DNA of 63,749 nt, counting the filler, from Licmophora abbreviata (Eukaryota): NCBI GenBank assembly GCA_900291995.1. It is 19 parts of 19 records of this genome, joined end to end, with 100 filler letters (N's around TTAATTAATTAA, not from the genome) between each part and the next. Parts side by side here need not be neighbours in the genome. Positions count along the whole stretch, not along the records: positions 61,990 to 63,749 come from OLMU01000577.1; 18 more parts are not named here. One strand, given 5' to 3'. The position numbers and the translations under genes were made by a program. Of the stretch, positions 4,938-63,749 are shown one piece after another; positions within the stretch are counted from its first letter, which is position 1, and each line of letters starts with the position of its first letter. The notes beneath the pieces were generated by a model that was not told the origin of the DNA, ran no database searches, and saw only the letters and a program-made list of their open reading frames with translations.

Positions 4938-7482
4938 ATGACGGCGCCTGCCTTGTCGATTGCCGTCAAGACGGTGGGTCGCCGACAGCAGCCTGGGCAT
5001 GAGGCGGATCCGCTGTCTGATTTCACTCTCACGGTCTCTCCAGACGACGACCTCAAGTCACTGCATCAGGAGATTGAAACTGTCACCGGACTCAAGGCTT
5101 CGCAGCAACGATTGATTTACCGCGGTCGAATAATCAGCACCGGCAGCAAGGTGGATGTGGAGGAGCAACGACACGGCGAGCAATCCAAGAAGCGAGCTCG
5201 CATTCGCGACGTCGTGGGACTCGGAGATGGGCACACGATCCACCTCGTGCCTCGATCGTCTGCCGATACTACACAAGAAGAAACACCAGAGTCTGCGGCG
5301 CTTTCAAACGAGATCGAGCATCCGACGACTGACGACTCCGGCGATGCAAACACCTCCGCTCTCACTGTGTCAATCTTGGCCGCGCTCTTGGGACTATCCG
5401 GAGATGACGGCGACGGCGATGAAGAGGATCAAGCGTCTCGATCTCAACGAAGAAGAAGCGCTCGACGCAGTCGATATCGAATGAACCGTCATCGTCTCAC
5501 TTCCGAAGATCTTGTCGTTCCTGACCCCGGCTCATTGGAACCTGTCCGGCAAGGCCTTATGACTCTTCACACCATGCTCGGTGCTCAACTCGCTCCACCC
5601 AATTCNNNNNNNNNNNNNNNNNNNNNNNNNNNNNNNNNNNNNNNNNNNNTTAATTAATTAANNNNNNNNNNNNNNNNNNNNNNNNNNNNNNNNNNNNNNN
5701 NNNNNCGCTCCACCCAATTCACCATTTGATTCGAATCGTCAATTCTACCGAGGACAGTGGATTGACTGCCGAGATACAGTGAATCAATGGCTCGAAGCAA
5801 CCATTGTCGAAATCGCGCTGCCAGAGGAAATACTCTCCGATCGCATGCGCTTTCAACGTCGGACTTCCGAGGCTCCTTTTCTGCGACCTACAATGGACCC
5901 TCCTGTCGCCGCCACTGACCTAGAGAATCGACAGAGACTTTTACTTGAGCCTAATTCGGAAGGCGGTGAACAGGAACGTGAAAACAATGACACTGTGAAA
6001 CTCTTATTGATTCATTACAATGGATGGGCGAGACGGTGGGACGAATGGATTCGCAGCGACTCGGAGCGGATACGGCCTTTTCGAACTCGGACGACACACG
6101 CTGGAAGCGGAGCGTTGCCAGCGATCGAGAGCTCGTTCGAGAATGCTCCGTCGACATGTATTCGAGGAGAGGATGTTGCAGTCGATCGGGCAGCATTGAT
6201 TCCCGAATTGGCGCGAGTGTTGTCCGTCTTTGGCAACCAAGTCGCCAGTGCCGCATCGATGCCCTCGCCGGATGAAGATATCCACACGGGCATCGAGACA
6301 TTGGATGCATCGCATCTGCCGTGGCTTTCTGATAGAAACAGTGCGGAGGAGAACAACATATCTGTGAGGACGGACTCGTCGTCATTGCGTCTTCCAGCTC
6401 TTAGCCGGCGACAGCTTGAGAGACTTGCCCCTCTCATGGATCGACTTGGCCGCACATTGACAGAAGCAGCGCCCCATGTTGCCTCCCTTGCTTCGACACT
6501 TCCGGAGGAAGCGAATCCCGAGGTGGGGCGCGACAGAGCATCTCGTAGTTCCGCTGATGCTTCGGAGGACGTGAGCCGGACTGCACCTGACGAGCAAGCT
6601 GTCATGCAGTCCGCGCCCAGCAGTGGGTTCTTTTCTTCATTGCTGTTGCGCCGATCAAGTGCGCGCGCGTCGACTGAGAGCGCTAGGGCGGATGTATCTG
6701 CTCAGGAAGAGCCAAACGACGACGCTTTCGAGCCCGATTTCGTCGACTTTGTGACCAGCGCAACCAATACGTCGCACAGTCGCGTAAGCCGGCGTCGTTC
6801 TGATGACGGAGTAACTGCTGGGCTGCTTGGTGCATATTTGGCGGCATCAAGCTTGAACAGTCCGTCAGAAGGAGAAAACACGGAGAGAAATGAGGAAGAA
6901 GATGGTGATGGTCCCAGCAGTCTATCAGGCCTCGGCCGGTTGCTTCGACAAGGTGGGAACGGCAACAACGGCGGCGGGGGCGGAATTGACATTCATATCC
7001 ATGCTATTGTAACTGGACCGGGAGTCGGACCTGGAGCACTCGCGATGGAGGGGGCGCCCGCAGCGAATGACACCACTCGTGCTACGATCTCTGGCGCATC
7101 AAGCCGTTCGCCCATCCGGGCAAGACGTACTTCGCGAAGCCGAAGCGCTATCGAAGCACCCGTTGAAGAGAATGATGATATCTTTGATGAACTCTATTCT
7201 GAGAACCCGACTCCCCTTGACCCTCGTGGAGACTCACAGGGCGTCCATCATGACGTTCGCCCGTCTTCTGAGTTACCAACGTTGGATGAGAATAGCGAGA
7301 ATCGTATCGTTTCTGATCCATCTCGGTACCTTCTGCCGCCGGTGTCAGACTCTTTGCTTTCTACTTCCGGCAATGTATCCGAGCTTAGTGCTAGTAGACG
7401 GCGCAGAGGACGAATCCTTGGCCGCGTGTTTCGCAGAACGAGTTCCCGTCGCTCAAACCCAGAAGATCGTATTGAACGATGA
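4938..7482 (+). CDS. Ubiquitin-like domain protein with Tudor-knot/chromo-barrel-like module and long disordered tail (one ORF once the 15-nt overlap across spacer 5606-5705 is collapsed)
   Basis: QQRLIYRGR...DGHTIHLV (Ubl); GQWIDCRDTVNQWLEATI and LLIHYNGWARRWDEWIRSDSERIRP (Royal-family-like). Confidence 0.75.
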
Positions 7483-8376: not shown

Positions 8377-11350
8377 ATGCGTTTATCTGTTGCTCTCAGC
8401 TCAATCGTTGCGATCTTGGTCGTCAGCAACGCTGATGGCGCACGTGAGGGACTCCTCCGCAAGCTTGCCGGGCTCTTCACCGATGGACGAGGAAGTGTTC
8501 AGGTACGAGGAAGATCGTGACAATTCATGGAGAAGGCTAATCAGGATATCAATGCTCACTGATGCTGCTGTGACTGCTTTTACATTTGCTCACTTCCAGG
8601 GCCTTGAGCGACACCTGACGTACTATGACACTCCTTCGCCAACCCCTGCAAAACCAGTGCCTGTCAAACCGACACCCGCTCCGTTCATGCAGACGTCGCC
8701 CCCAGCTTCCTGCGCTTCGACTCCGGTCTGTATTGACTTTGAAGTCACTCCCGATGGCAAATCCATCGACAATGGGGCCTACGTGAGCAAAGAATGGTAC
8801 GCCAGCTACGGACTGACCATCGTTGCTAGCTCGACGGACGGTGGCTTCACTCCTAGTGGCATGGCCCGTATCTTCGATACTGCGCTCTACGATACTGAAG
8901 ACACCGACCTTGGAGCACCCAATCAGTACTGTCCGATTGCCGGTCCCGGCACGGGAGATGGAGGAAAGCCTGGCATGCCTGGAGAGAACTGCGAGCCCCA
9001 GGGAAATGTTCTGATCATTCAGGAAAGCGATAAGATGGAACCCGACGACAACGCATATGGAGGCAGTATCGAGTTCATTTTCAAGCATCCTGTCGAGCAG
9101 TTACTGTCCATGGGATTGATGGACATCGACAACCTCGAGACAGACTACTTTGAGATTCTGGTTGGCGACATGCTATCGAAACAGAAGATTGTGGGTCTCG
9201 GCGACAACTCAGTTCAAACTGAAACATTTTACAAGTCCAATGTGAACAGCCTCAAGGTTGTGGCCTCCAACTCTCTTGCTATCCGTGATCTCTGCTTCTG
9301 CCCAGGTAGCGGTGCTCCTGATGCAACACCAGCGCCTACGCTGCATCCGATGACACCAGCACCAACCCCAAAGGCTACTCCTGCGCCAGTCCCCGCAACG
9401 CCAGCACCGACTGTGCCGGCGGAACCTCTTCCGACCATCACCGTAACCTACACTGCTGTGCCTTCGACCATTAGTGAGCCCGGCGCCATTGTCACCTACA
9501 CTGTCAGTATCAAGAATACTTCCGGTCCATCCGATACTGTCACTATTGGTACCATCATTACGGACTCCTTCGGAGACTTGAACGGCCAAGGCAGTTGCTC
9601 GGTACCACAGAAAATAGCCCCTGGTGGCGAGTACACGTGCTCGTTTACGAAGCAAATTACGGGTAACGCAGGGGAGGTGAAGCCGAGCATTCTTATTGTA
9701 ACAGGGGTGGACGAAGAAGGTACCGCTGTCACTGGAAGTGACACCACTAGCGTTTCAATCATCAAAGATAACACGCCTCCGGCCCCTACTCTAAGGCCGA
9801 CACTTCCACCTACCGGTGCGCCCATCCCGGCAACACCGAGTCCAACATCAAAGGCGACTCCAGCACCAACGGCCAAGGCTACTCTAAAGCCGACTTCTGC
9901 TCCTACTCCCACCCCGGCTACATCGAGCCCAACTGTAAAACCCTCACCAGCCCCTGCCGCGAAAGCCACTCCAGCACCAACTGCCACGGCCACTACGAAG
10001 CCAACTTCTTCACCTACTCCCATTCCGGCTACACCAAGCCCAACTGTAAAAGCCTCACCAGCCCCTACAGCGAAAGCCACTCCAGCACCAACGGCCAAGG
10101 CTACTCCAAAGCCGACTTCTGCTCCTACTCCCATTCCGGCTACACCAAGCCCAACTGTAAAAGCCTCACCAGCCCCCACAGCGAAAGCTACCCCCATCCC
10201 TGCTACGCCGAANNNNNNNNNNNNNNNNNNNNNNNNNNNNNNNNNNNNNNNNNNNNTTAATTAATTAANNNNNNNNNNNNNNNNNNNNNNNNNNNNNNNN
10301 NNNNNNNNNNNNACACCGGCACCCACTTCAAGTCCAACTCCGGCGCCGACCCGCAGCCCGACGAGTGCACCGACCCCCGTACCCACGTCTGAGCCAACCA
10401 AAGCAACTCCTATGCCGACCCGTAGCCCAACACCAGCCCCAACACCCAACCCAACACCTGTACCAACTGCAAGCCCAACGCCAGTGCCTACCCCGGCACC
10501 AACTCCCTCGCCAACGCCATCTCCCACCGACTCTCCAACACCCTCGCCAACGGTGGAGCCGCCCACGTCCTTCCCTCCAGGTACCTGTTCGTCAACGCCA
10601 GTCTGCCTTAACTTCGATTCGATTCCTGAAGGAAAGGCGCTTGTTCATGGCGACTACGTCAGCACCGAGTGGGAGTCTGCGTATGGCATGACCATTACCG
10701 CTGAGTCGACGGACGGTGGATTCACGCCCGACGGAAAGGTCCGCATCTTCGATACGTCTCTGTTCGACACAGAGGACCCTGATCTTGGCGCACCAAACAA
10801 GTACTGCCCGAACTCAGGCCCAGGAGTTGGCGAGGGTGGAAAGCCCAATATGCCAGGCGAGAACTGCGAGCCGCAGGGTAACGTGCTGATCATCCAGGAA
10901 ACTGACAAGTTGGAGCCTGACGACAACGCTTACGGAGGAAGCATTACGTTCGACTTCTCTTGCCCGGTGGAGAAGCTGCTTACAATGGGCGTTATGGATA
11001 TTGATGTTGGAGAGACAGACTATTTCGAGGTCAGGCAAGGAGATGCAATTTCTCTCCAGATGATCAGCGGACTTGGAGACAACTCCATCCAGACGGAGAC
11101 CTTCAATAAACCGTCGGTCGACAGTGTCAAAATTGTGGTGTCCAACTCTCTTGGTCTCCGCGACATTTGTTTCTGTCCTGGCAGCTGCGGTCCCACCCCG
11201 GTTCCTGGTACCAAGCCCGCGCCCAAGCCAGATGCCACGCCTGCCCCCACGCCTAGCCCCAAGCCTGCTCCGAAGCCTGGCCCCAAGCCCACTCCGAAGC
11301 CTGGAATGAGAAGTCTTTCTGGATCCGTCCGTGGTTTTGTCGGTTGGTAG
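8377..11350 (+). CDS. Secreted modular Pro/Thr-rich protein A: signal peptide, Cys-domain (8711-9307), Ig-like DUF11-type repeat (~9427-9765), PT repeats, Cys-domain (10586-11188), PK tail; intron 8503-8599; spacer 10213-10312
   Basis: Exon 1 translates [42 protein letters not shown] (42 codons, GT donor) and joins in phase 0 to ORF 8390; paralogous to the gene at 14059. Confidence 0.85.
9780..10560 (+). repeat. Coding Pro/Thr/Ala/Lys low-complexity tandem repeats (e.g. [21 protein letters not shown]), broken by an assembly spacer
   Basis: Near-identical nucleotide blocks around 10020-10090 and 10130-10190. Confidence 0.85.
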
Positions 11351-14058: not shown

Positions 14059-17000
14059 ATGCGGTTGAGTTCCGCTCTTAGCACGACCCTTGCGGTCCTG
14101 ATTGTCAGCAACGCTGATGCACGTGAAGGCGGGATTCTTCGCAAGCTTGCCGGGATGTTCGGCGATGATGCGCAGGCAACCGATGAGGTACGGAGTATGA
14201 TGTGCGAGCGGGCAAGTGTATGTTGCTCGTAGAATGTCTATTGCTCACTTCATCTGCTTCTGTCTTGATGATCAATATCAGCACGATCGCGACTTGATGG
14301 ACGGCTCTTGCCAACAAGTCTGCGTCGATTTCACGACCGATCGATTTGGAAAAGCTCTCGTTCACGGCGACTACGCGACCGAGTTTCCAAGCGGATTGAA
14401 AATTGAAGTTTCATCTACTGACGGGGGGTTCACACCAGTTGGCAAGGGGCGCATCTTTGATACGTCCCTAGAAGGCACTGAGGATCCCGATCTTGGATCT
14501 CCCAACGAGGCATGTCCAGTCCCGGGCCCTGGAGTGGGTTTCCGTGGCGAGCCTGGCACGCCTGGAGAGAATTGTGACCCTCAGGGCAATATTCTTATCA
14601 TCCAGGAATCAGACAAGGTTCAACCGGATGACAATGCCTACGGTGGAACGTTCAAATTCATGTTTAACTCTCCGATGAAGGTTCAATCCATCGGGCTTAT
14701 TGATATCGAGGAAGAAGTTGACACAACCCTTAAGATCTACAAGTCAGCAGGCGGCGCACCAGAGATCCTCCTGGTTGAAGGACTTGGTGATAACTCAGCT
14801 CAGGAGCAAGCAATTCAAAAGGACGACGTGGTCAGTATGACGCTTGACCTCACAACTTCTGGTGGAGTTAGCAGTGTCTGTGTTTGCGATGGATCCGGCA
14901 CAAGCCCATCACCAACGCCCAAGCCCACTCCTGACCCAACACCCAAGCCAACTCCTGATCCAACACCTAAGCCAACGCCTGAACCCACGGCAGACCCCAC
15001 AAAAGACCCTGTGCCTTCGACAAGTGNNNNNNNNNNNNNNNNNNNNNNNNNNNNNNNNNNNNNNNNNNNNTTAATTAATTAANNNNNNNNNNNNNNNNNN
15101 NNNNNNNNNNNNNNNNNNNNNNNNNNATTGTGATCGGAGCAGACGAAGAGGGATCCCCTGTGTCCGGGAGCGACAGCACATCTGTCACCATCAAAGCCCC
15201 ACCCACTGAGTCACCAACCAATGCCCCGACAGCGGCGCCAACTCCAAAGGGGAGTCCTGATTTAACTCGAGCGCCTACGGCCGCCCCCACTGCCAAGGCG
15301 ACGCCCTCACCGACAAACCAACCGACGGCTGCACCCGAGCCGAACCCCACGATCACAGTCAGCTACAGCGCTGATCCATCGACCGTCACCGAGCCCGGAG
15401 CTACCGTAACGTACACGGTCGTCATCAAGAACACATCGAGTCCTACCGACACTGTCACCCTCACGAGCCTCGTTTCTGACTCTTTTGGCGATCTGAATGG
15501 TGTAGGCGGATGTTCTGTACCACTTGTAATCCTTCCAGGAGAGGAATACTCATGCTCTTTCATCAAGGCGCTAACGGGCGTCGTGGGTGAGACCAAAACG
15601 TCCATTCTCGTTGCAGTAGGATTGGACGAAGAGGGATCCCCAGTGTCGGGAAGCGACATCAGCTCCGTCACAATCGAAGCTGCATCTACCAAGAACCCCT
15701 TTACACAGATGCCGTCCGCTCCCTCACCCGCGACTGGACCGAGCAGTGCCCCATTCCTGCAGACGAGCCCCCCAGTTCCTTCTGGTGTATGTGAATCTAC
15801 ACCTGTTTGTATCGACTTCTCTAGCTCCCCAGAGCGTGAGCTTGTCCACGGTGACTATGTGAGCAAGGAGTGGGCGGCCATGTACGGAATGACCATTACT
15901 GCCTCTTCTACCAACGGCGGTTTCACGCCTGGAGGCATGGCCCGAGTGTTTGACACTTCACTTCACGATTCCGAGGATCCTGATCTTGGCGCGCCGAACG
16001 AGCATTGTTCGATCCCTGGTCCAGGAAGTGGCATCGGTGGAATGCCCGGTGAACCGGGAGAGAACTGTGACCCACAAGGAAATGTTTTGATAATCCAGGA
16101 ATCGGAGAAAGATGCACCGGATGACAATGCATGGGGCGGAAGTATCGAGTTCAGCTTCGCTTGTCCGTTAGAGAGGCTACTGACGATGGGAATTATGGAC
16201 ATTGACAATCTCGAAAAAGATTACTTCGAGATAGTGCACGGTGGTACAGTCTGGAAAAAGAAGATTATCGGACGTGGAAACAACTCGATTCAAGATGAAA
16301 TCCTTGACAAAGAGGATGTGACCAGCATCAAGGCTGTGGTTTCCAATTCCCTCGGCGTCAGATACATCTGCTTCTGCTACGACTCTGATCAGTGTGGACC
16401 ATCGCCCACAACTCCTTCTCCGAGTCCAGACGCAGAAACGGACCCAACTACGCCCCCGAGCCCTTCAGCAACGGCAGAGCCGACGTCTGCCCCTACTGCG
16501 AAGGCGACGCCAGTGCCAATTTCCGAGCCGCCAGCACCTACTAAGGAGGCAACCCCTGTACCAACTGAGCCGACGGAACCAGCCCCTAGTCTCGTTGTCA
16601 CATATACTGCTATTCCACCCATCGTCTTTGCGCCTGGTGCGACTGTCACGTACTTCGTGACCGTGAAGAACACCTCCAGTTCGACCGATCCTGTTACGCT
16701 CAGCAGTCTGACTTCAGATACGTTCGGCGATTTGGATGGGCAAGGAACGTGTTCTTTGGTAGAGACCATTGCCCCAGGAGGTCAATACACGTGCACGTTC
16801 ACCAGGCAAGTCACTGGAAACGCTGGCGAGACCGTGATATCAATCGTCGAAGCGTCTGGAACGGATAACGAAGGCACTCCTGTGACTGGTAGCGATGACG
16901 CTTCTGTAAGGATCGTCGCGAAGGCGAATCCTTCTCCGACGGACAATCCAACTCCTTCTCCAACGCTTTCAACAACTTCCAACCCAACGGCAAACCCTAC

Positions 17001-20000
17001 GGCGCTTCCAGAACCAGATCCAAGTATCACCGTGACATATACCGCTATTCCTCCCAAAATATTTGAGCCTGGAGCAATCGTTACATACATGGTTACTATC
17101 AGCAATACCTCATCATCGACAGATCCTGTGACCATCTCTAGTCTTACGACCGATACGTTCGGCGACTTGGATGGACAGGGGACTTGTTCCATACCGGAGA
17201 CAATAGTTCCTGGAGACCAGTTCATCTGCTCCTTCACAAAGGAAATTGCAGGATCAGCGGGAGAGACCACGACGTCAGTTGTTGAAGTCAATGGAATGGA
17301 TGATGAAGGTTCTCTTGTGTTCGGCACTGACGACGCGACAGTGACATTTATCGCCGCACCTACCCCTTCTCCAACAGCAAACCCAACTCCCTCTCCTACG
17401 AGCAGCCCAACAACGAACCCAACTCCCTCTCCTACGAGCAGCCCAACAACGAAGCCAACTGCTTCTCCAACGAACAGCCCCACAACGAAGCCAACTGCTT
17501 CTCCAACGAACAGCCCCACAACGAAGCCAACTGCTTCTCCAACGAACAGCCCCACAACGAAGCCAACTGCTTCTCCAACGAACAGCCCCACAATGAAGCC
17601 AACTTCCTCTCCTACGAACAGCCCAACAACGGCTTCTCCAACGAGCAGCCCAACAAAGAAGCCAACTCCAACCCCGACAGCTTCTCCAACTGCAGACCCA
17701 ACTCTTCGCCCAACGAAGAGTCCGACTAGCCCACCAGAGCCCGAGCCAAGCTGTAAACTTGTGTACACGGCCTCCCCTTCCAGTGTGCAAGAACCTGGTG
17801 CTACAGTAACGTACACAGTTAAGGTGAAGAACACGTCGTCGTCGACCGACACCCTGACAATTGGAACGTTGATTGCAGATACCTTTGGCAACCTAAACGG
17901 ACGGGGAAGCTGCGTGATGGAACAAACACTCGAGCCAGGCGAGGAATACTCGTGCGTCTTCACGGCTACAGTAACCGGAATCGCTGGCAGTGTCACGAAC
18001 AGCGTAGCTGTCGCCTCCGGAATTGATGACGAGGGGACGGCTTGTTCATGCAGCGATGAAGCGGAAATTTTGATCAGCGCTGCCCCGACGAAAGCACCGA
18101 CTACGTCACCAACTTCTGCTCCCACTGTGTCGATGACTCCTGCGCCCACTACACAGAAGACGCCAAGCCCAACAGATTCACCAACGCCGATTCCCGAGCC
18201 CAACCCAAGCATAGTTGTCACCTTTACCGCCAATCCGTTGACTATCACTGAGCCGGGCAGTACGGTCGAGTATACCATTGTCATCAAGAACACTTCTAGT
18301 CTCACAGACACGATCACCATCACAAATCTGATCTCTGACACTTTCGGAAATATCAACGAGGAAGGCAACTGTTCGCTACCGCAGGCAATCGCGCCTAATG
18401 GAGAATACACATGTACTTTCTCCAAGCAAATTGAAGGTACAGCCGGTGAGGCCAAACCGTCTGTCGTAATAGCCTCTGGAACGGACGACGAAGGAGTTTC
18501 TGTGTCTGACAGCGACGCTACAGTCGTTATTATCGTAGCCTCTCCTACAAAGTCACCCACAAAGACACCCACGCCTGCACCTACCATCCAGGTGACGCCT
18601 TTGCCGACGAACAAACCGACGCCTGATCCGGAACCCGTTCCAAGCATCACGGTTTCCTTTAATGCCGTTCCACCGACCATCTTTGAGCCTGGCGCGACCG
18701 TTACTTACGTTGTCACAGTGGCAAATACGTCCAGTTCCACCGACCCTGTCCTCATCACCAGCCTTATCACGGATACGTTCGGTGATTTGAACGGCCTAGG
18801 CACTTGTTCAGTCTCAGAGACTGTCGCGCCTAACGAACAGTATACTTGTACGTTCACTAGAGAAATCACAGGGAATTCTGGAGATGTCACAACGACAGTC
18901 CTGCTAGTCTCTGGTGAAGACGACGAAGGAACTTCAGTGTCGGGAAGTAGTGACACGACTGTGACAATCATTGCCGCGCCCACTAAGACGCCGACCAAGG
19001 CACCGGTCAATCCTCCTACTTCGTCGCCAACGTCGAGCCCAACCAAGAGCCCAACCAAGAATCCAACGAGCAGCCCAACGTCGGCCCCGACAAGCAAACC
19101 CACACCGGTCCCCGAGCCGCTGCCAGGTATCACTGTCGTCTACACTGTTGAGCCCTCAACCGTTTTTGAGCCAGGAGCGACTGTGACGTACAAGGTCTTG
19201 ATCAAGAACACGTCCAGTCCGACCGATCCTGTCACCATCAGCACACTTGTAGCGAATACCTTTGGTGATTTGAATGGGCAAGGAACATGCGCTGTTCCGC
19301 TGACGATCGCGCCGGGAGGAGAATATGAATGCATGTTCACCAAGCCAGTTAGCGGGTCTGCCGGAGAGACGAGAGAGTCAGTCGTTGTCGCCTCTGGAAC
19401 TGACGATGAGGGCGTACCCGTCTCTGGAAACGACACAGCAAGTTTGACGATCATTGCGGCACCGACAAAGAGCCCGACAAAGGCCCCGACAAAGGCCCCG
19501 ACCAAGGCCCCGACCAAGTCCCCCACCGCCGCTCCGACGGTGAAAGCAACTCCCAGTCCGACGATGACCCCGACATCCGCTCCCGAAGCTGCTGTGACTC
19601 CAGCCCCGACGCCTTCGGATCCAAGCGATTCTTGTAAATCGACGCCAGTGTGTATTGATTTCTCCAGCGCCCCTGGAAAGGATATCAGTCACGGCACGTA
19701 TGTAAGCGAGGAATGGTTCAGTGCGTATGGAATGACCATTACTGCGGCTTCCACCGACGGTGGATACACGCCGAATGGACAGGCCCGTATCTTTGATACT
19801 TCGCTGTACAACACCGAGGATGCCGATCTTGGAGCACCGAACGAGAATTGTCCGATCCCAGGTCCTGGTGTGGGCGAAGGCGGCAAGCCAGGCATGCCGG
19901 GAGAGAACTGTGAGCCGCGTGGCAACGTGTTGATCATCCAGGAATCTAACAAGGCTGCCCCTGACGATAACGCCTATGGCGGAAGCATGAAGTTCGAATT

Positions 20001-20406
20001 CACCTGTCCCGTGGAGAAGTTGTTGACATTGGAAGTGCTGGATATCGATGAGACTGAGATGGACTTCTTGGAGATAACAAGTGGCGACATGGTGTACACC
20101 GACGAGATCTATGGACTTGGAGACAACTCTATCCAGACTGTGGAGATCAACAAGTGGAATGTCAAGAGCATTAAGATAGTGGTCCCCAACTCTCTTGGAG
20201 TGAGCGAGATCTGCTTCTGCCCCGGCGACTGCGGCTTTGTACCCATCTCTCCCGCCCCGGTTGCGATTGCCAATACGGCCAAGCCAACACCCGCACCCAA
20301 ACCAACTCCCGCGCCAACGCCTGTACCCAAACCAACGCCCGCGCCAACTGGAAAGCCACAGTCGATGAGGAGACTAGCAGCTGTCCGAGATGCGCTTGGG
20401 ATTTAA
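14059..20406 (+). CDS. Secreted modular Pro/Thr-rich protein B (>2000 aa): signal peptide, three Cys-domains (14309-14887, 15790-16395, 19633-20232), at least 7 complete and 1 partial Ig-like DUF11-type repeats, PT linkers; intron 14188-14281; spacer 15027-15126
   Basis: Exon 1 MRLSSALSTTLAVLIVSNADAREGGILRKLAGMFGDDAQATDE (43 codons), phase-0 intron at the equivalent position to gene A; joining across the spacer is inferred from strand and architecture. Confidence 0.85.
17368..17690 (+). repeat. Coding minisatellite, 36-nt unit (KPTASPTNSPTT), about 4 near-perfect copies plus degenerate flanking copies
   Basis: aagccaactgcttctccaacgaacagccccacaacg repeated over ~17452-17595. Confidence 0.92.
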
Positions 20407-58400: not shown

Positions 58401-60800
58401 ATGGCATGGCCCGCCACGAATCGAATCACAAAAAACAAACCAACAAAAACGACAGCAAACTCAGTTGCGACGATGACAAGTTCGGTCGTCGATTCCCAGC
58501 TTGTCTCGCTAGACGACACAGATTGCTATGCCTCATCGTGGGCGGAAGCCGTCAAAACATCGGAAAATTCAGGAAGTTTAAAGAATCCTTGGGGTGGCCG
58601 CGGCAAAGGCGGACGACTTCTCAGTCGTCGCACCATTCAGCCTCACACTGTGGTAGTCGACGACGTGAGACTCGAGTACGTTAACGATAAGGGTCTTCCA
58701 GGCAAGATATTGTTGGAGCGCGCTACACTTAAGTTACTTTCGAAGCACGTATATGCTATTGTTGCGAGAAATGGGAGTGGAAAAAGTACCCTCCTGAGAC
58801 GAATCGATGCTGGCAAGATACCAGGATTTCCAACCCACCTGTCATCTATATACATCCCGCAAGAAGTGATCGTAGACAAAGAGAAGACACCTCTCGAGAT
58901 GGTTCTGAGTCACCACGATAAGTACTGTCACGAATCCACGGCGTTGGCTCAAGGAAAGATCGAGGATCTCGAGGATCAGTTGGAACAGCTCGACGTTTCG
59001 TCGTCCGACGCAGATGTGCAAAAAATGGAAAGTCTATGTGAACAAATTTCTCAGCTTGAAGATGAAGCGGACTGCAACTACGACGACATGGTAGCACGTC
59101 TTCAGGCTCAGGAATCCTTAACGTTCTTTGGGTTGGACGAGAGTCACTGGCATACACCAACAGGCCGCCTCTCAGGAGGTATTCAAAAGAAAGCTCAGCT
59201 AGCGACCGCCCTGTTTTGCAAAGCAGACTTGCTTCTCCTGGACGAACCTACAAATTTTCTGGATGTTCAAGGCTTGATCCAGCTGCGTCGACTCATTTCG
59301 ATATGTACAGAAAGGAATACTACCGTTCTACTCGTCTCGCACGATGTCGATCTCATAAACGACGTTGCGTCCGACGTCATGCATATTTCACAGCAGTCGC
59401 TTGAGTACTATCCGGGAAACTATAGAGACTTTCTGGGATACAAACAACAGAAGGACCTTCACAGTCTCCGAGAGCACGTTGCCCTAGAAAAGAAACGCGA
59501 TGCCATGCTTCAAACGCTGGATCACTTGAAGAAGCAACCCGTGCCGAAGCGAGGCGGCGCCAAGAAGAAGGGACGTGCGATCGAAAGTATGAAAAAGAAG
59601 CTTGAAAAGCAAGGCATTGAGCATGATGAGAAGGGTCATCGATGGAAGCAACAAAAATCGGGAACAGGTTTGTTGAATAGTCTTATATGCTGTGCTATCG
59701 AGCGGGAACCGCATCAATGCACTAACGCATCTCATCTCTTGTGCGTACAAAATAACAGGCATTAAACAAGGATCCATTAACTCGGTCGATGCTTCCTCAA
59801 GGAATAGTTTGTCCCACTCGCAACTCCTCAAGCGAGNNNNNNNNNNNNNNNNNNNNNNNNNNNNNNNNNNNNNNNNNNNNTTAATTAATTAANNNNNNNN
59901 NNNNNNNNNNNNNNNNNNNNNNNNNNNNNNNNNNNNGCACCTGTCCCGGACAAGGCTGTACAGTTCGTGTGAGTATTGCGCTCATTCTCTGAGTCTCGTC
60001 TTGAGTAGCGATTCTTTAGTTTCTCACGTTACCCTGCATACCACAGCTTCCGGAACCCTACCAGTACATGGGGCGAGCCCCTTATCGTGGCGACAGATTT
60101 GGGCCATGGTTACGGTGCCCCCGAAGAAAGCCCACCGACGCAGCTTGATCCGTTGGCAACGCTGGGCATGAAGAAGACGGGATATCTATTCGATTGTGTT
60201 GATATTTGTGTCGACGAAGGTTCAACGACGTGTATTCTTGGCAGCAATGCGTCTGGCAAGTCGACGCTTTTGCGGCTACTCGCTAAGCTCGAGCAACCAC
60301 TAGAGGGCAAGATTGATCATGCCCAGGGCCTAGGCATCGGATACTTCGACCAGCATGTCGTCGACGAAATGATCGAGTCAGCTGATAGCGAAGGAAAAGA
60401 AACGACGACGTCGTTGTCATTCCTCGCAAGACGTTTCCCAAAAAAGACTGAGCAGATCCTGCGTGGGGAGCTCACGTCGTTCGGTATCGGGCCAGATCGT
60501 GCAGTGACCGATGTGCGATTCCTCAGCGGAGGAGAGCGCAGTCGGGTCTGCCTGGCCGCGCTCATGCTGTTGGATCCACAGCTGTTGATCATGGACGAGC
60601 CCTCTTCGCATCTTGACGTCGAAAGCGTCGAGGCACTTATCTATGCACTGCGACAGTGGAATGGGACGGCGGTCATGGTCTCGCACGACGCCCACTTGAT
60701 TCGGTCGCTAGGTGGGTCGTGCTATATCATCATGCCGCACGAAGGCAAGATTCGGAGGGTACCGGACATCGATGCTTACCTCAAGACTTTCACTCTTTGA
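58401..60800 (+). CDS. ABC-F family ATPase (two NBDs, no TM); introns ~59668-59758 and ~59968-60046, spacer 59837-59936
   Basis: RNGSGKST, LSGG, LLLLDEPTNFLD, VSHD, YPGNY; second NBD GSNASGKST, LSGGERSR, DEPSSHLD, VSHD. Confidence 0.93.
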
Positions 60801-61889: not shown

Positions 61890-61989
61890 NNNNNNNNNNN
61901 NNNNNNNNNNNNNNNNNNNNNNNNNNNNNNNNNTTAATTAATTAANNNNNNNNNNNNNNNNNNNNNNNNNNNNNNNNNNNNNNNNNNNN

Positions 61990-62190
61990 CGTAACCTGTT
62001 TGCCACCCTTCGTGTTGGGACCTTGTTTACCACCTTTAGTGCTTCCTTGCTTGCCCCCTTTCGTGTTCGTAACCTGTTTGCCACCCTTCGTATTGTGACC
62101 TTGCTTACCGCCTTTGATGCTTCCTTGCTTGCCTCCTTTCGTGTTCGTAACCTGTTTGCCCCCTTTTGTGGCGATGCTCTTCTTTCCTCC
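61990..62190 (-). repeat. Coding KGGKQ repeat, 7 copies arranged as a 78-nt (26-aa) higher-order unit, running into a spacer
   Basis: TKGGKQVTN-TKGGKQGS-(I/T)KGGKQG(H/P)N twice plus the start of a third unit. Confidence 0.92.
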
Positions 62191-63749
62191 ATCCTTTCCG
62201 GTGGAGTTTCCATCTAAGCCTCCTTGACCATCTCCTTGAATCGTCAAGATGGCTTCGTCGCAGGCGCGTAGTTCGTTTTTATCTGTGACACAAGCACTAT
62301 TGGAGAGGGATAGATCTGCGGGTGAGCCGCCACAACTCCGCTTTCCGCCGATGCTCCAAGATGCAATCTGCCAATCGGGATTCTCACGCTCGTGCGGGCC
62401 CTCTTTTTCCCCCCAACCTTCCAGAAACTTGTCCGAACATGAAATTTGGAGGGTGAACGGTGCATCACCGTTTGGAGGGTTCCACTCAACCTGCTTGTTT
62501 TTCACAGAGAGTAACGAACTTGAATCGTCGATCCCATTGAGAACTGCAACACCGTTATTGTTACCCTCAAGTACGTTTCCATTCACAAATACAAATCGGA
62601 AGTTACGGAAAGACTCCCCGACAGGTTCAGAAACGACGGTCGTCGATGCAATTGTTGTGTAGTCAACGGTGATTACTACCGATTGGAATGCCGGAATCTT
62701 CACGCTACAGGCAACTTCCTGCTCGAAACTAGACGAACAGTCGCCGTCTCCCCTGACTTCTATGCCCTCAATACTGAGTAGACTATTGACGGAGTCAGTG
62801 ACTTTCAAGTCAGTCAAGTCGGCCTCCCCAGTGTTGAAGACCTCAATCGTGAACGAATGAGAAGATCCGGGCAAAACAGTATCCGGACTGAAAGTTTTTT
62901 CAATCTCAACGAATGCAGTTCCATCGTGTAGGGCGGGGCTCTCGCTTGGACTTCCACTGGGACAGTCGTCAGAGGGGGGCAGTGTCATGTCAACAGAAAT
63001 TGGTGCTGACGTCGGAAACGCGGGAGGGCCTCCACTAATCGGTGCTGGAGTGGGAGGTTCAGCATCACAATTACCAGGACAGAAACAAATATAACGAAGT
63101 GCGCCCGAGCTCTGTAAGGTAATTGTAAGTTCTCGTACTCCTTCGAACTCATCAAGAGACGCTGTTTGAACTGAATTTTCACCAATTCCCTCGATTTCGA
63201 GGAATTCGGTTGTTTCAACGATCCCTCCATTGCCCTGAAGGACAGTTACAATCTCCGCAAGTGCGGAATTGTTGGAATAAATATTCATAAGACCCACATC
63301 AAGCAGCTTATCAAGTTCGCAGGCGAAATTGAAAACAAAGCTTCCACCCTCAATCTCACTATTTGGTGAAGTTGTTCCCCCCTGCTGGATAACAATCACA
63401 TTTCCGACGGGATCGCAATTCTCTCCCAATTCACCAGGTCGGCCGCCCTGACCAGTTCCAGGTCCAGGTATACTACAAGCCTCATTCGGACTGCCAAAAT
63501 TCATATCGGTCAAATTTGCGGTGGCCGTGTCCAAAACTCTCGGTCGTCCAGATGCATCCGTGGACGTAGTCGTCATCGTTATACCATACAAACTAAACCA
63601 TTCCATGCTCAAAAAGTCGCCGTGTTGTATTGCTGAATTGTCAGGAAACATGGCAAAATCCAGACACACCTTCTCGCTCGAGCTACAAGGGGTCGTAGAG
63701 GATGAGGGTGGTGCAGACAGAGCTTCGGCTGGGCCCGCCGTCGGTAGCG
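61990..63749 (-). CDS. Modular protein C, presumably extracellular (both ends missing): divergent Cys-domain (63687-63067), DUF11-type Ig-like domain with ~110-aa insertion (~62917-62240), KGGK repeat tail
   Basis: Frame open to the window edge; GSPNEACSIPGPGTGQGGRPGELGENCDPVGNVIVIQ matches the gene A/B domain; IEKT...FTIEVFNTG...VTDS...LSNSACV; signal peptide not in window. Confidence 0.85.

Follow-up and report, generated by a model that had tools for sequence, protein, structure and literature searches.

Whether intramolecular Lys-Asn isopeptide bonds occur in eukaryotes is a question cited from the field in a paper on the DUF11 domain, renamed CLIPPER (PMC12617251). The crystal structure 9IFR of such a domain has an intramolecular Lys715-Asp748-Asn806 isopeptide bond, and the CLIPPER bond gives thermostability and protease resistance (PMC12617251). 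A locus in the assembly of the diatom Licmophora abbreviata (GCA_900291995.1) raises this question. It is an open frame fragment on the last of the 19 contigs that make up the window, that is, the whole stretch of 63,749 nt that was analyzed. A sequence-only reading of the window had claimed that this frame encodes, in a eukaryote, a DUF11-type domain with an apparently intact Lys-Asp-Asn triad and with about 110 amino acids inserted before the Asn strand, and that the protein may self-crosslink, clamping the insert. The fragment contains a true DUF11/CLIPPER domain, and its three triad residues are strictly conserved in a family of bacterial units that share the insert. We read the locus, with a probability of about 0.55, as belonging to a large gene of a eukaryote for a mucin-like adhesive or matrix protein outside the cell, which would include bacterial-derived modules and in which a Lys-Asn bond would close the loop bearing the insert.

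Identification of a DUF11/CLIPPER domain

The frame encodes, in this order, a Pro/Ser/Thr-rich lead-in, an N-terminal domain, a Pro-rich linker, a CLIPPER domain with an insert and Lys/Gly/Gln-rich repeats (Table 1). When the fragment was compared with Pfam, DUF11 (PF01345) was matched with 29.5 bits (E 1e-6), above its gathering cut-off of 24.6, which bears out the claim of a DUF11-type domain. The interval given for it in the sequence-only reading, 62240-62917, does hold the feature, but its ends fall one to two bases out of frame; the in-frame interval, 62242-62916, scores 31.8 bits against PF01345 on its own. The related isopeptide families DUF7507 and DUF7933 are sub-threshold in the fragment, and so is NCBIfam TIGR01451 (19.3 vs. 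24). The DUF11 match places residues 280-367 on positions 2-86 of the 114 positions of the profile. The final quarter of the profile is left unmatched at the expected place, and this is the signature of an inserted domain. The N-terminal part of the domain contains Lys284 and Asp318, and also the pair Cys337/Cys347.

A second comparison was made with a hidden Markov model (HMM) built from 53 canonical tandem DUF11 repeats (122-130 aa) of four metagenomic proteins. Nodes 4-95 of this repeat HMM align to query residues 280-369 with 65.6 bits, which brings Lys284 to the canonical position vvKTF and Asp318 to itDlv. On residues 460-515, the model aligns SLSNSACVTDKNELR to nodes 99-113, with Asn483 (SLSNSACV) on the canonical Asn of the vsNTAsv strand (0.2 bits, E 0.033). 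As a control for the Asn strand, bacterial C-terminal parts were aligned as well; 16 out of 21 fall on the same nodes, each weakly too. PDB sequence searches with the fragment, with the family profile and with a tandem-DUF11 protein returned no relevant match, 9IFR being too distant for sequence search.

Conservation of the Lys-Asp-Asn triad

The unit consisting of domain plus insert was aligned in 57 rows, which correspond to the query, 26 metagenomic sequences and 30 sequences translated from named bacterial genome loci (two of the 32 long bacterial matches, with a stop in translation, were left out). The column of Asp318 holds Asp in all 57 rows. The columns of Lys284 and Asn483 hold Lys and Asn, respectively, in 55 rows each, the other two being gaps in truncated rows. 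Hence, the triad previously described as apparently intact is kept in every alignable homologue; the codon positions that had been given for its Lys, Asp and Asn proved exact. The KTF, VTD and N-S/T-A motifs around the triad residues are likewise kept in the query. Further invariant or nearly invariant columns are those of Phe286 (55/57), Phe387 (57/57), Cys437 (57/57), Pro451 (57/57) and Cys472 (56/57). Identity between the query and the bacterial units is 33-45%. With respect to 9IFR, the Lys-to-Asp spacing is of 34 residues in the query vs. 33, and the Asp-to-Asn spacing is of 165 vs. 58; the difference in the latter, 107 residues, is near the length of the 111-residue insert.

Two further cysteines of the query, Cys486 and Cys496 (62290-62262 region), bracket the hairpin between the penultimate and last strands. 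Both are absent from the 26 aligned metagenomic units. Judging from the alignment, they may form an extra disulfide gained in the lineage of the query.

Structural model of the domain

Residues 272-510 were modeled with AlphaFold2 using a 17-row alignment (model ma55ae9de810e). The mean predicted local distance difference test score (pLDDT) is 78.7; strands of the sandwich reach 88-97, and loops are poor. Lys284 lies on the first strand (model residues 9-16) and Asn483 on the penultimate strand (208-217), both with a pLDDT of about 93-95, and Asp318 ends the third strand (40-48). The isopeptide bond of CnaA-like domains joins the first and penultimate strands of opposing sheets (PMC12617251), and in the model the triad residues sit on the topologically correct strands for a bond of this kind.

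A Foldseek search with the domain model returned 9IFR in fourth place (E 2e-4, target-normalized template modeling (TM) score 0.64). When both structures were superposed with VIA-align, 117 of the 123 residues of 9IFR were aligned to the model range 4-233, across the insert, with Z 13.5, a root-mean-square deviation of 2.2 Å and 13% identity. As this alignment spans the insert, the strands that follow it (208-217 and 223-232, the latter being the last one; pLDDT 93) complete the CLIPPER fold. The isopeptide pilins BcpA, EbpB and SpaD score Z 11-13 against the same model. A split domain, that is, a DUF11 completed in trans, was also considered as a candidate and rejected because the strands in question follow the insert within the same chain.

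As a separate observation, the Pfam family ITGAX-like_Ig_3 also matches on a bacterial DUF11 array.

The inserted module

The insert is located between Asp318 and Asn483. The stretch separating the Asn strand from the last core strand that was matched is 111 amino acids long, in agreement with the figure of about 110 proposed earlier. Since the insert stands between the catalytic Asp and the bond-forming Asn, the bond would close the loop that carries it. CnaA and CnaB folds accommodate domain insertions in loops (PMC12617251). Within the insert, the motifs FRFVFVNG..LEG, (H/Q)(L/I)SCSD, GWG..GP and WQIA are conserved, as are Cys437 and Cys472.

Residues 368-478 were searched for known families, with no Pfam match at E <=10 and no NCBIfam family, and the ESM Atlas gave no usable match for the insert. 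The module was then modeled separately (residues 366-480). The model obtained has eight short strands, with a pLDDT of 75.8 and a predicted TM score of 0.70. When it was compared with 48161 representative solved chains, none was found at Z >=5; the best Z was 3.8, and the top weak rows correspond to small beta-barrels such as the cathepsin C exclusion domain and avidins.

The insert is single-copy in all of the insert-bearing proteins (32/32). In the 13 of at least 1300 aa it occupies a relative position of 0.72-0.89, behind the stalk repeats. The insert is probably a displayed binding module, since it has invariant motifs and a conserved pair of cysteines and since, in the bacterial proteins, a single copy of it follows the stalk, close to the C-terminal end. 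With neither a family nor a known fold, this 111-residue insert is well suited to studies of structure and ligands.

Bacterial distribution of the unit

A HMMER search with residues 1-520 retrieved 1244 proteins at E <=1e-3. They form two independent sets, one matching the N-terminal domain (210 aa) and the other the block from residue 280 to about 505. Of the 163 other proteins gathered, 44 align to the unit and 120 to the N-terminal domain, with no protein aligning to both. Half of the unit matches (22/44) extend over the whole distance between the Lys and Asn strands, with domain E values of 1e-28 to 1e-44. The resemblance is far above chance, as full-length matches of the unit to bacterial proteins attain domain E values of 1e-38 to 1e-44. 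In the metagenomic homologues, the partner domains of the unit are bacterial adhesin parts, namely tandem DUF11/DUF7507, SpaA_2, HYR_4C and the sorting tail of the type IX secretion system (T9SS).

Prokaryotes were scanned with one genome per species, and 47 unit loci were found in marine bacteria of five phyla (Actinomycetota, Chloroflexota, Bacteroidota, Pseudomonadota and Verrucomicrobiota). Cultured carriers include Gelidibacter salicanalis, Gaetbulibacter aquiaggeris, Robiginitalea aurantiaca, Mangrovibacterium marinum and Draconibacterium orientale; carriers known as genome bins include members of Acidimicrobiia, Chloroflexota, Gammaproteobacteria and Opitutae. The domain with its insert is a conserved, widespread and pre-existing bacterial module, not peculiar to the query protein, and whatever the host it represents an undescribed CLIPPER variant.

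In a tree of the unit, the bacterial sequences are mutually close and the branch of the query is by far the longest (2.56 vs. a median of 0.2). A branch of this length would be expected of a copy whose evolution proceeded apart from the bacterial pool.

The bacterial units (loci L001-L032) are alike across phyla, with end branches of about 0.1-0.5, and only those of Bacteroidota group together. This similarity points to transfer of the module from one phylum of marine bacteria to another.

Paralogues of the N-terminal domain and layout of the window

The N-terminal domain of the frame shows the motif GSPN..C..PGPGTG.GG..GENCDP.GNV..IQ and ends in CFCPG. Its homologues are more than 100 metagenomic proteins, some with SdrD_B domains or with up to six matched stretches. 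A word-index protein search gave one match of similar length, to the N-terminal domain only, and no match among longer proteins; for this domain the ESM Atlas gave leads below 0.9 only. Five further copies are encoded on contigs 3-6 of the window, with 35-40% identity, and the highest identity of the query domain in the set compared for the tree, 43%, is to one of these paralogues. One of the paralogue frames, of 1758 codons, consists of Pro/Thr (PT)-rich spacers and seven DUF7507 (CLIPPER_2) stretches. The query and the paralogue of contig 3 share the order N-terminal domain, Pro-rich linker, CLIPPER-type domain. On contig 3, which is ungapped, this paralogue is found about 900 bp from an open reading frame (ORF) with a Tudor/chromo-barrel motif that matches, weakly (E 1e-3 to 1), 28 eukaryotic PDB chains of this type. 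In a tree of the N-terminal domain, built as a quick tree only, all six copies of the window fall inside one clade of 14 rows (Shimodaira-Hasegawa-like approximate likelihood ratio test support 98).

The contigs of the window, each of 1.3-7.9 kb, are discontinuous DNA, and all junctions use identical N44-TTAATTAATTAA-N44 linkers (1754-1853, 5606-5705, and so on up to 61890-61989), so that neighborhood arguments spanning any linker need separate checking for each of them. A gene for an ABCF-type ATPase is split by the linker at 59837-59936 into two ORFs, 58401-59762 (+) and 60087-60797 (+). Both half-ORFs match one ABCF1 chain (5zxd_A, residues 4-260 and then 320-517), on the same strand and in the correct order; hence at least that linker connects truly adjacent DNA. 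Other contigs encode clearly eukaryotic proteins (AMPK-beta, RRP40, UNC-50 and RPE65). The features considered here are listed in Table 1.

Table 1. Positions of the query features and of other elements, counted along the whole window
Feature	Position	Strand	Basis or remarks
Open frame fragment (P0001), 586 codons	61990-63747	-	Uninterrupted; 5' end exits the stretch, 3' end enters N-gap
N-terminal domain, about 210 aa, residues 21-232	63052-63687	-	No Pfam family
Pro-rich linker, residues 233-277	62917-63051	-	Sequence
CLIPPER/DUF11 N-terminal part, residues 278-367, model strands 1-7	62647-62916	-	Pfam, repeat HMM, model
Lys284 codon AAA (VEIEKT), first strand, proposed bond donor	62896-62898	-	Alignment and model
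Asp318 codon (VTDS), proposed catalytic residue	62794-62796	-	Alignment
Inserted beta-rich module, 111 aa, residues 368-478	62314-62646	-	Alignment and model
CLIPPER C-terminal part, residues 479-505, penultimate strand (with Asn483) and last strand	62233-62313	-	Model; weak HMM alignment
Asn483 codon (LSNSACV), proposed bond acceptor	62299-62301	-	Alignment and model
Lys/Gly/Gln-rich repeats (KGGKQ...)	61990-62220	-	78-nt DNA period, 2.3 copies, 91% match; ended by assembly gap
Linker N44-TTAATTAATTAA-N44	61890-61989		Parts contig 19 (query contig) from neighboring contig 18
PT-rich (mucin-like) giant paralogue cluster with N-terminal domain	8390-10210, 10412-11347, 14216-15025, 15130-20403	+	Sequence comparison; the first interval is the contig-3 paralogue
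Ser/Arg-rich disordered ORF with Tudor/chromo-barrel motif HYNGWARRWDEW	5779-7479	+	Contig 3

Ownership of contig 19

Contig 19 is of 1760 nt and carries one frame and nothing more. Its GC content, 49.8%, is similar to that of the remaining stretch. The tetranucleotide correlation of contig 19 with the rest of the window is 0.734, a value within the range of the other contigs (0.712-0.930; 0.71-0.85 for those of similar length). Pieces of 1760 nt around the homologous unit were taken from bacteria, and none of these 44 pieces correlates above 0.663.

We also looked for relatives of the contig in sequencing data. A scan of metagenome contigs with the fragment gave 75 pattern matches and no relative among them. 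Six sequencing runs, with no RNA run among them, contain matching sequence, with shares <=0.14. Four runs were assembled onto the contig and gave nine low-depth contigs of 80-318 nt, of which five show a likeness of at least 99%, one of 95-99% and three of 90-95%. They stem from three marine or sediment metagenomes and from one run labeled by coded organism, and none of the nine bridges the ends of contig 19.

Our estimate is that contig 19 belongs to a eukaryote with a chance of roughly three in four. The domain claimed "in a eukaryote" is real, and its eukaryotic host is probable, as judged from indirect evidence: the eukaryotic proteins encoded on other contigs, the linker that connects adjacent DNA, the linked paralogues and their shared domain order, the tetranucleotides and the long branch.

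Proposed mechanism and alternative explanations

The modules would most likely have been acquired from marine bacteria and assembled into a mucin-like eukaryotic adhesive or matrix protein. In the predicted structure, the CLIPPER domain is a CnaA-like Ig sandwich in which the loop before the penultimate strand bears the beta-rich module. Upon folding, Lys284 and Asn483, aided by Asp318, would most likely form an autocatalytic Lys-Asn isopeptide bond. Such a bond would staple the two sheets and close the insert loop, so that the unit would resist pulling, heat and proteases, with the insert displayed. What we infer is that the bond forms, that the role is adhesive and that contig 19 belongs to the eukaryote. 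Of the earlier suggestion that the protein may self-crosslink and clamp the insert, the triad, the strand topology and the placement of the insert stand; the bond itself is predicted from sequence and model.

A different host would change this picture. Contig 19 might be DNA of a bacterial contaminant or symbiont, and the protein one of the usual fibrillar adhesins of bacteria, bearing a CLIPPER domain; we consider this unlikely. All of the unit homologues with a named source are bacterial (47/47 loci), the domains that accompany the unit in metagenomic proteins are of bacterial kind too (for example, SpaA_2, HYR_4C and the T9SS sorting tail), and a 2025 survey of the AlphaFold database found isopeptide bonds only in bacteria and archaea and ascribed its eukaryotic matches to likely contamination or false positives (PMC12617251). 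Several observations on the contig weigh against the eukaryotic adhesive or matrix gene, the lack of eukaryotic features and the codon usage also speaking for a bacterial owner. Contig 19, within its 1760 nt, shows no intron, eukaryotic neighbor, start or signal peptide; its codon usage ranks low within the stretch (against the pooled eukaryotic ORFs r is 0.39, these ORFs themselves spanning 0.38-0.74 and the paralogues 0.22-0.37); and its tie to contig 18 depends on a linker type verified for another contig pair only. The N-terminal domain tree is not free of difficulties either, since the query pairs weakly (support 86) with two metagenomic proteins, apart from a tight clade of four paralogues, and the copies of the window are not monophyletic (four changes are required, and there are metagenomic clade mates). 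One of these two proteins, P0054, has a sub-threshold SdrD_B match (25.2 bits, the cut-off being 29.7), and in P0168, from the same cluster as P0054, bacterial-type SdrD_B domains are above threshold. Against a bacterial owner stand the identity of at most 45% to any bacterial unit, together with the very long branch, and the base composition, as contig 19 fits the stretch in GC content and, in its tetranucleotides, fits it better than do all 44 bacterial loci. Moreover, contig 3 bears, in physical linkage with a gene of eukaryotic type, a member of the family that combines the N-terminal domain with a CLIPPER-type domain, none of the 163 other proteins (0/163) combines the unit and the N-terminal domain, and the scan of metagenome contigs gave no close relative.

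If the gene is eukaryotic, the domain might still form no bond and serve as a rigid Ig-like spacer, the triad being kept for packing or by recent descent. We regard this as rather improbable. Some DUF11 domains do lack the bond (PMC12617251), and Cys486 and Cys496 of the query could stabilize the domain by a disulfide instead. Paralogues in the window have lost the Lys: their CLIPPER_2-like repeats carry Tyr for the first-strand Lys (TVTYTA) and mostly Ser at the Asn position, so that these repeats have apparently lost the isopeptide triad, as read from their sequence, and the family here is not generally triad-keeping. Two further points tell against a bond-bearing CLIPPER domain. Taken alone, the Asn strand does not align significantly to canonical DUF11, and integrin alpha calf-2 domains, which are without such a bond, reach Z 14.6 against the model with 20-22% identity over about 125 residues, above the 13% of 9IFR. 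The score of 9IFR being tied with theirs, the fold alone does not discriminate; it agrees with family membership and is no proof of it. Yet, at a divergence of 55-67% from its bacterial counterparts, the unit has kept Lys, Asp and Asn with their surrounding motifs, and retention of the triad over such a long branch suggests selection on it. A decaying, unexpressed relic of a transferred gene would fit a gene truncated by assembly gaps, but the frame has 586 stop-free codons and all family-invariant core residues are intact, which leaves this explanation very improbable. The probability that the incomplete DUF11 is completed in trans by strands of another protein, as in split-domain fibers, is close to nil: the Pfam match is indeed truncated, but the strands that it misses are predicted in cis with high pLDDT and the model aligns to nearly all of 9IFR.

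Going beyond the preferred reading of a eukaryotic adhesive or matrix gene, a stronger statement can be put forward tentatively, at somewhat less than even odds: that a natural isopeptide CLIPPER domain, captured from bacteria and with its triad under selection, works in a secreted protein of a eukaryote, a marine alga, and clamps a binding module whose fold is absent from the solved structures. In bacteria, adhesins and pili owe their extreme toughness towards force and proteolysis to self-made Lys-Asn isopeptide bonds, on which protein glues of the SpyTag type are also based. If true, the statement would extend isopeptide chemistry to eukaryotic extracellular matrices and give a positive answer to the question of the field. 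The interest of the locus rests on its probable eukaryotic host and on its fold-orphan insert.

Comparison with known systems

We found no description of a natural eukaryotic intramolecular isopeptide domain in the literature, the supplementary hit lists of PMC12617251 lying outside the search. The structure 9IFR belongs to the fibrillar adhesin B9T28_05395 of Acinetobacter silvestris (PMC12617251), and the query shares with it PF01345, the triad and the CnaA-like sandwich. Unlike 9IFR, the query has the 111-residue insert, shares with it 13% identity only, comes from a eukaryotic assembly and occurs as a single copy rather than in a tandem stalk. Its apparently eukaryotic host departs from the range stated for CLIPPER, namely cell-surface or secreted proteins, with signal peptides, of bacteria and archaea (PMC12617251).

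The bacterial units (Gelidibacter, Gaetbulibacter and Robiginitalea of the marine Flavobacteriaceae, Prolixibacteraceae and others) are the same unit end to end and share the insert motifs, the cysteines and the triad. In the bacterial proteins the unit stands between a stalk of tandem DUF11/DUF7507 and a conserved C-terminal domain; the one scanned protein with this domain (P0071) has a T9SS sorting tail. The query unit instead follows an unrelated N-terminal domain and precedes Lys/Gly/Gln-rich repeats. In the CnaA-like pilus adhesins RrgA and GBS104-like Ig (PF21426), the bond residues likewise flank an inserted domain, whose base is thereby clamped (PMC12617251). The insert of RrgA and GBS104 is a vWFA adhesion domain, whereas that of the query matches no known adhesion domain in Pfam or among solved folds.

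Among diatoms, a DUF11 annotation has been given to Phatr3_J48356, which is listed as "DUF11 domain-containing", lies on chromosome 17 in Phaeodactylum tricornutum, is overexpressed at low salinity and has a promoter that drives eGFP (PMC12113381). The likeness consists in a DUF11 annotation on a diatom chromosome, which PMC12113381 gives with no comment on isopeptide residues. A mention of "DUF11" in PMC10269134 was rejected, as it actually refers to DUF1118.

The Trailins of diatoms are adhesive-trail proteins that bear bacterial Choice-of-Anchor-A domains, obtained by transfer, in Pro/Thr/Ser-rich proteins (bioRxiv 10.1101/2023.03.06.531300). As published precedents, the Trailins and Phatr3_J48356 both favor the reading of a eukaryotic gene, and in function the Trailins are the nearest analogue. 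The query has no Choice-of-Anchor-A (PF20597) match at E <=10, and no claim of an isopeptide bond is made for the Trailins; the two are to be compared by analogy only. Like the Trailins, the query would be a bacterial adhesin module within a Pro/Thr/Ser-rich algal extracellular protein, and its paralogues in the window are PT-rich too. If this reading is true, the locus would add to the evidence that algae build adhesives out of transferred bacterial parts.

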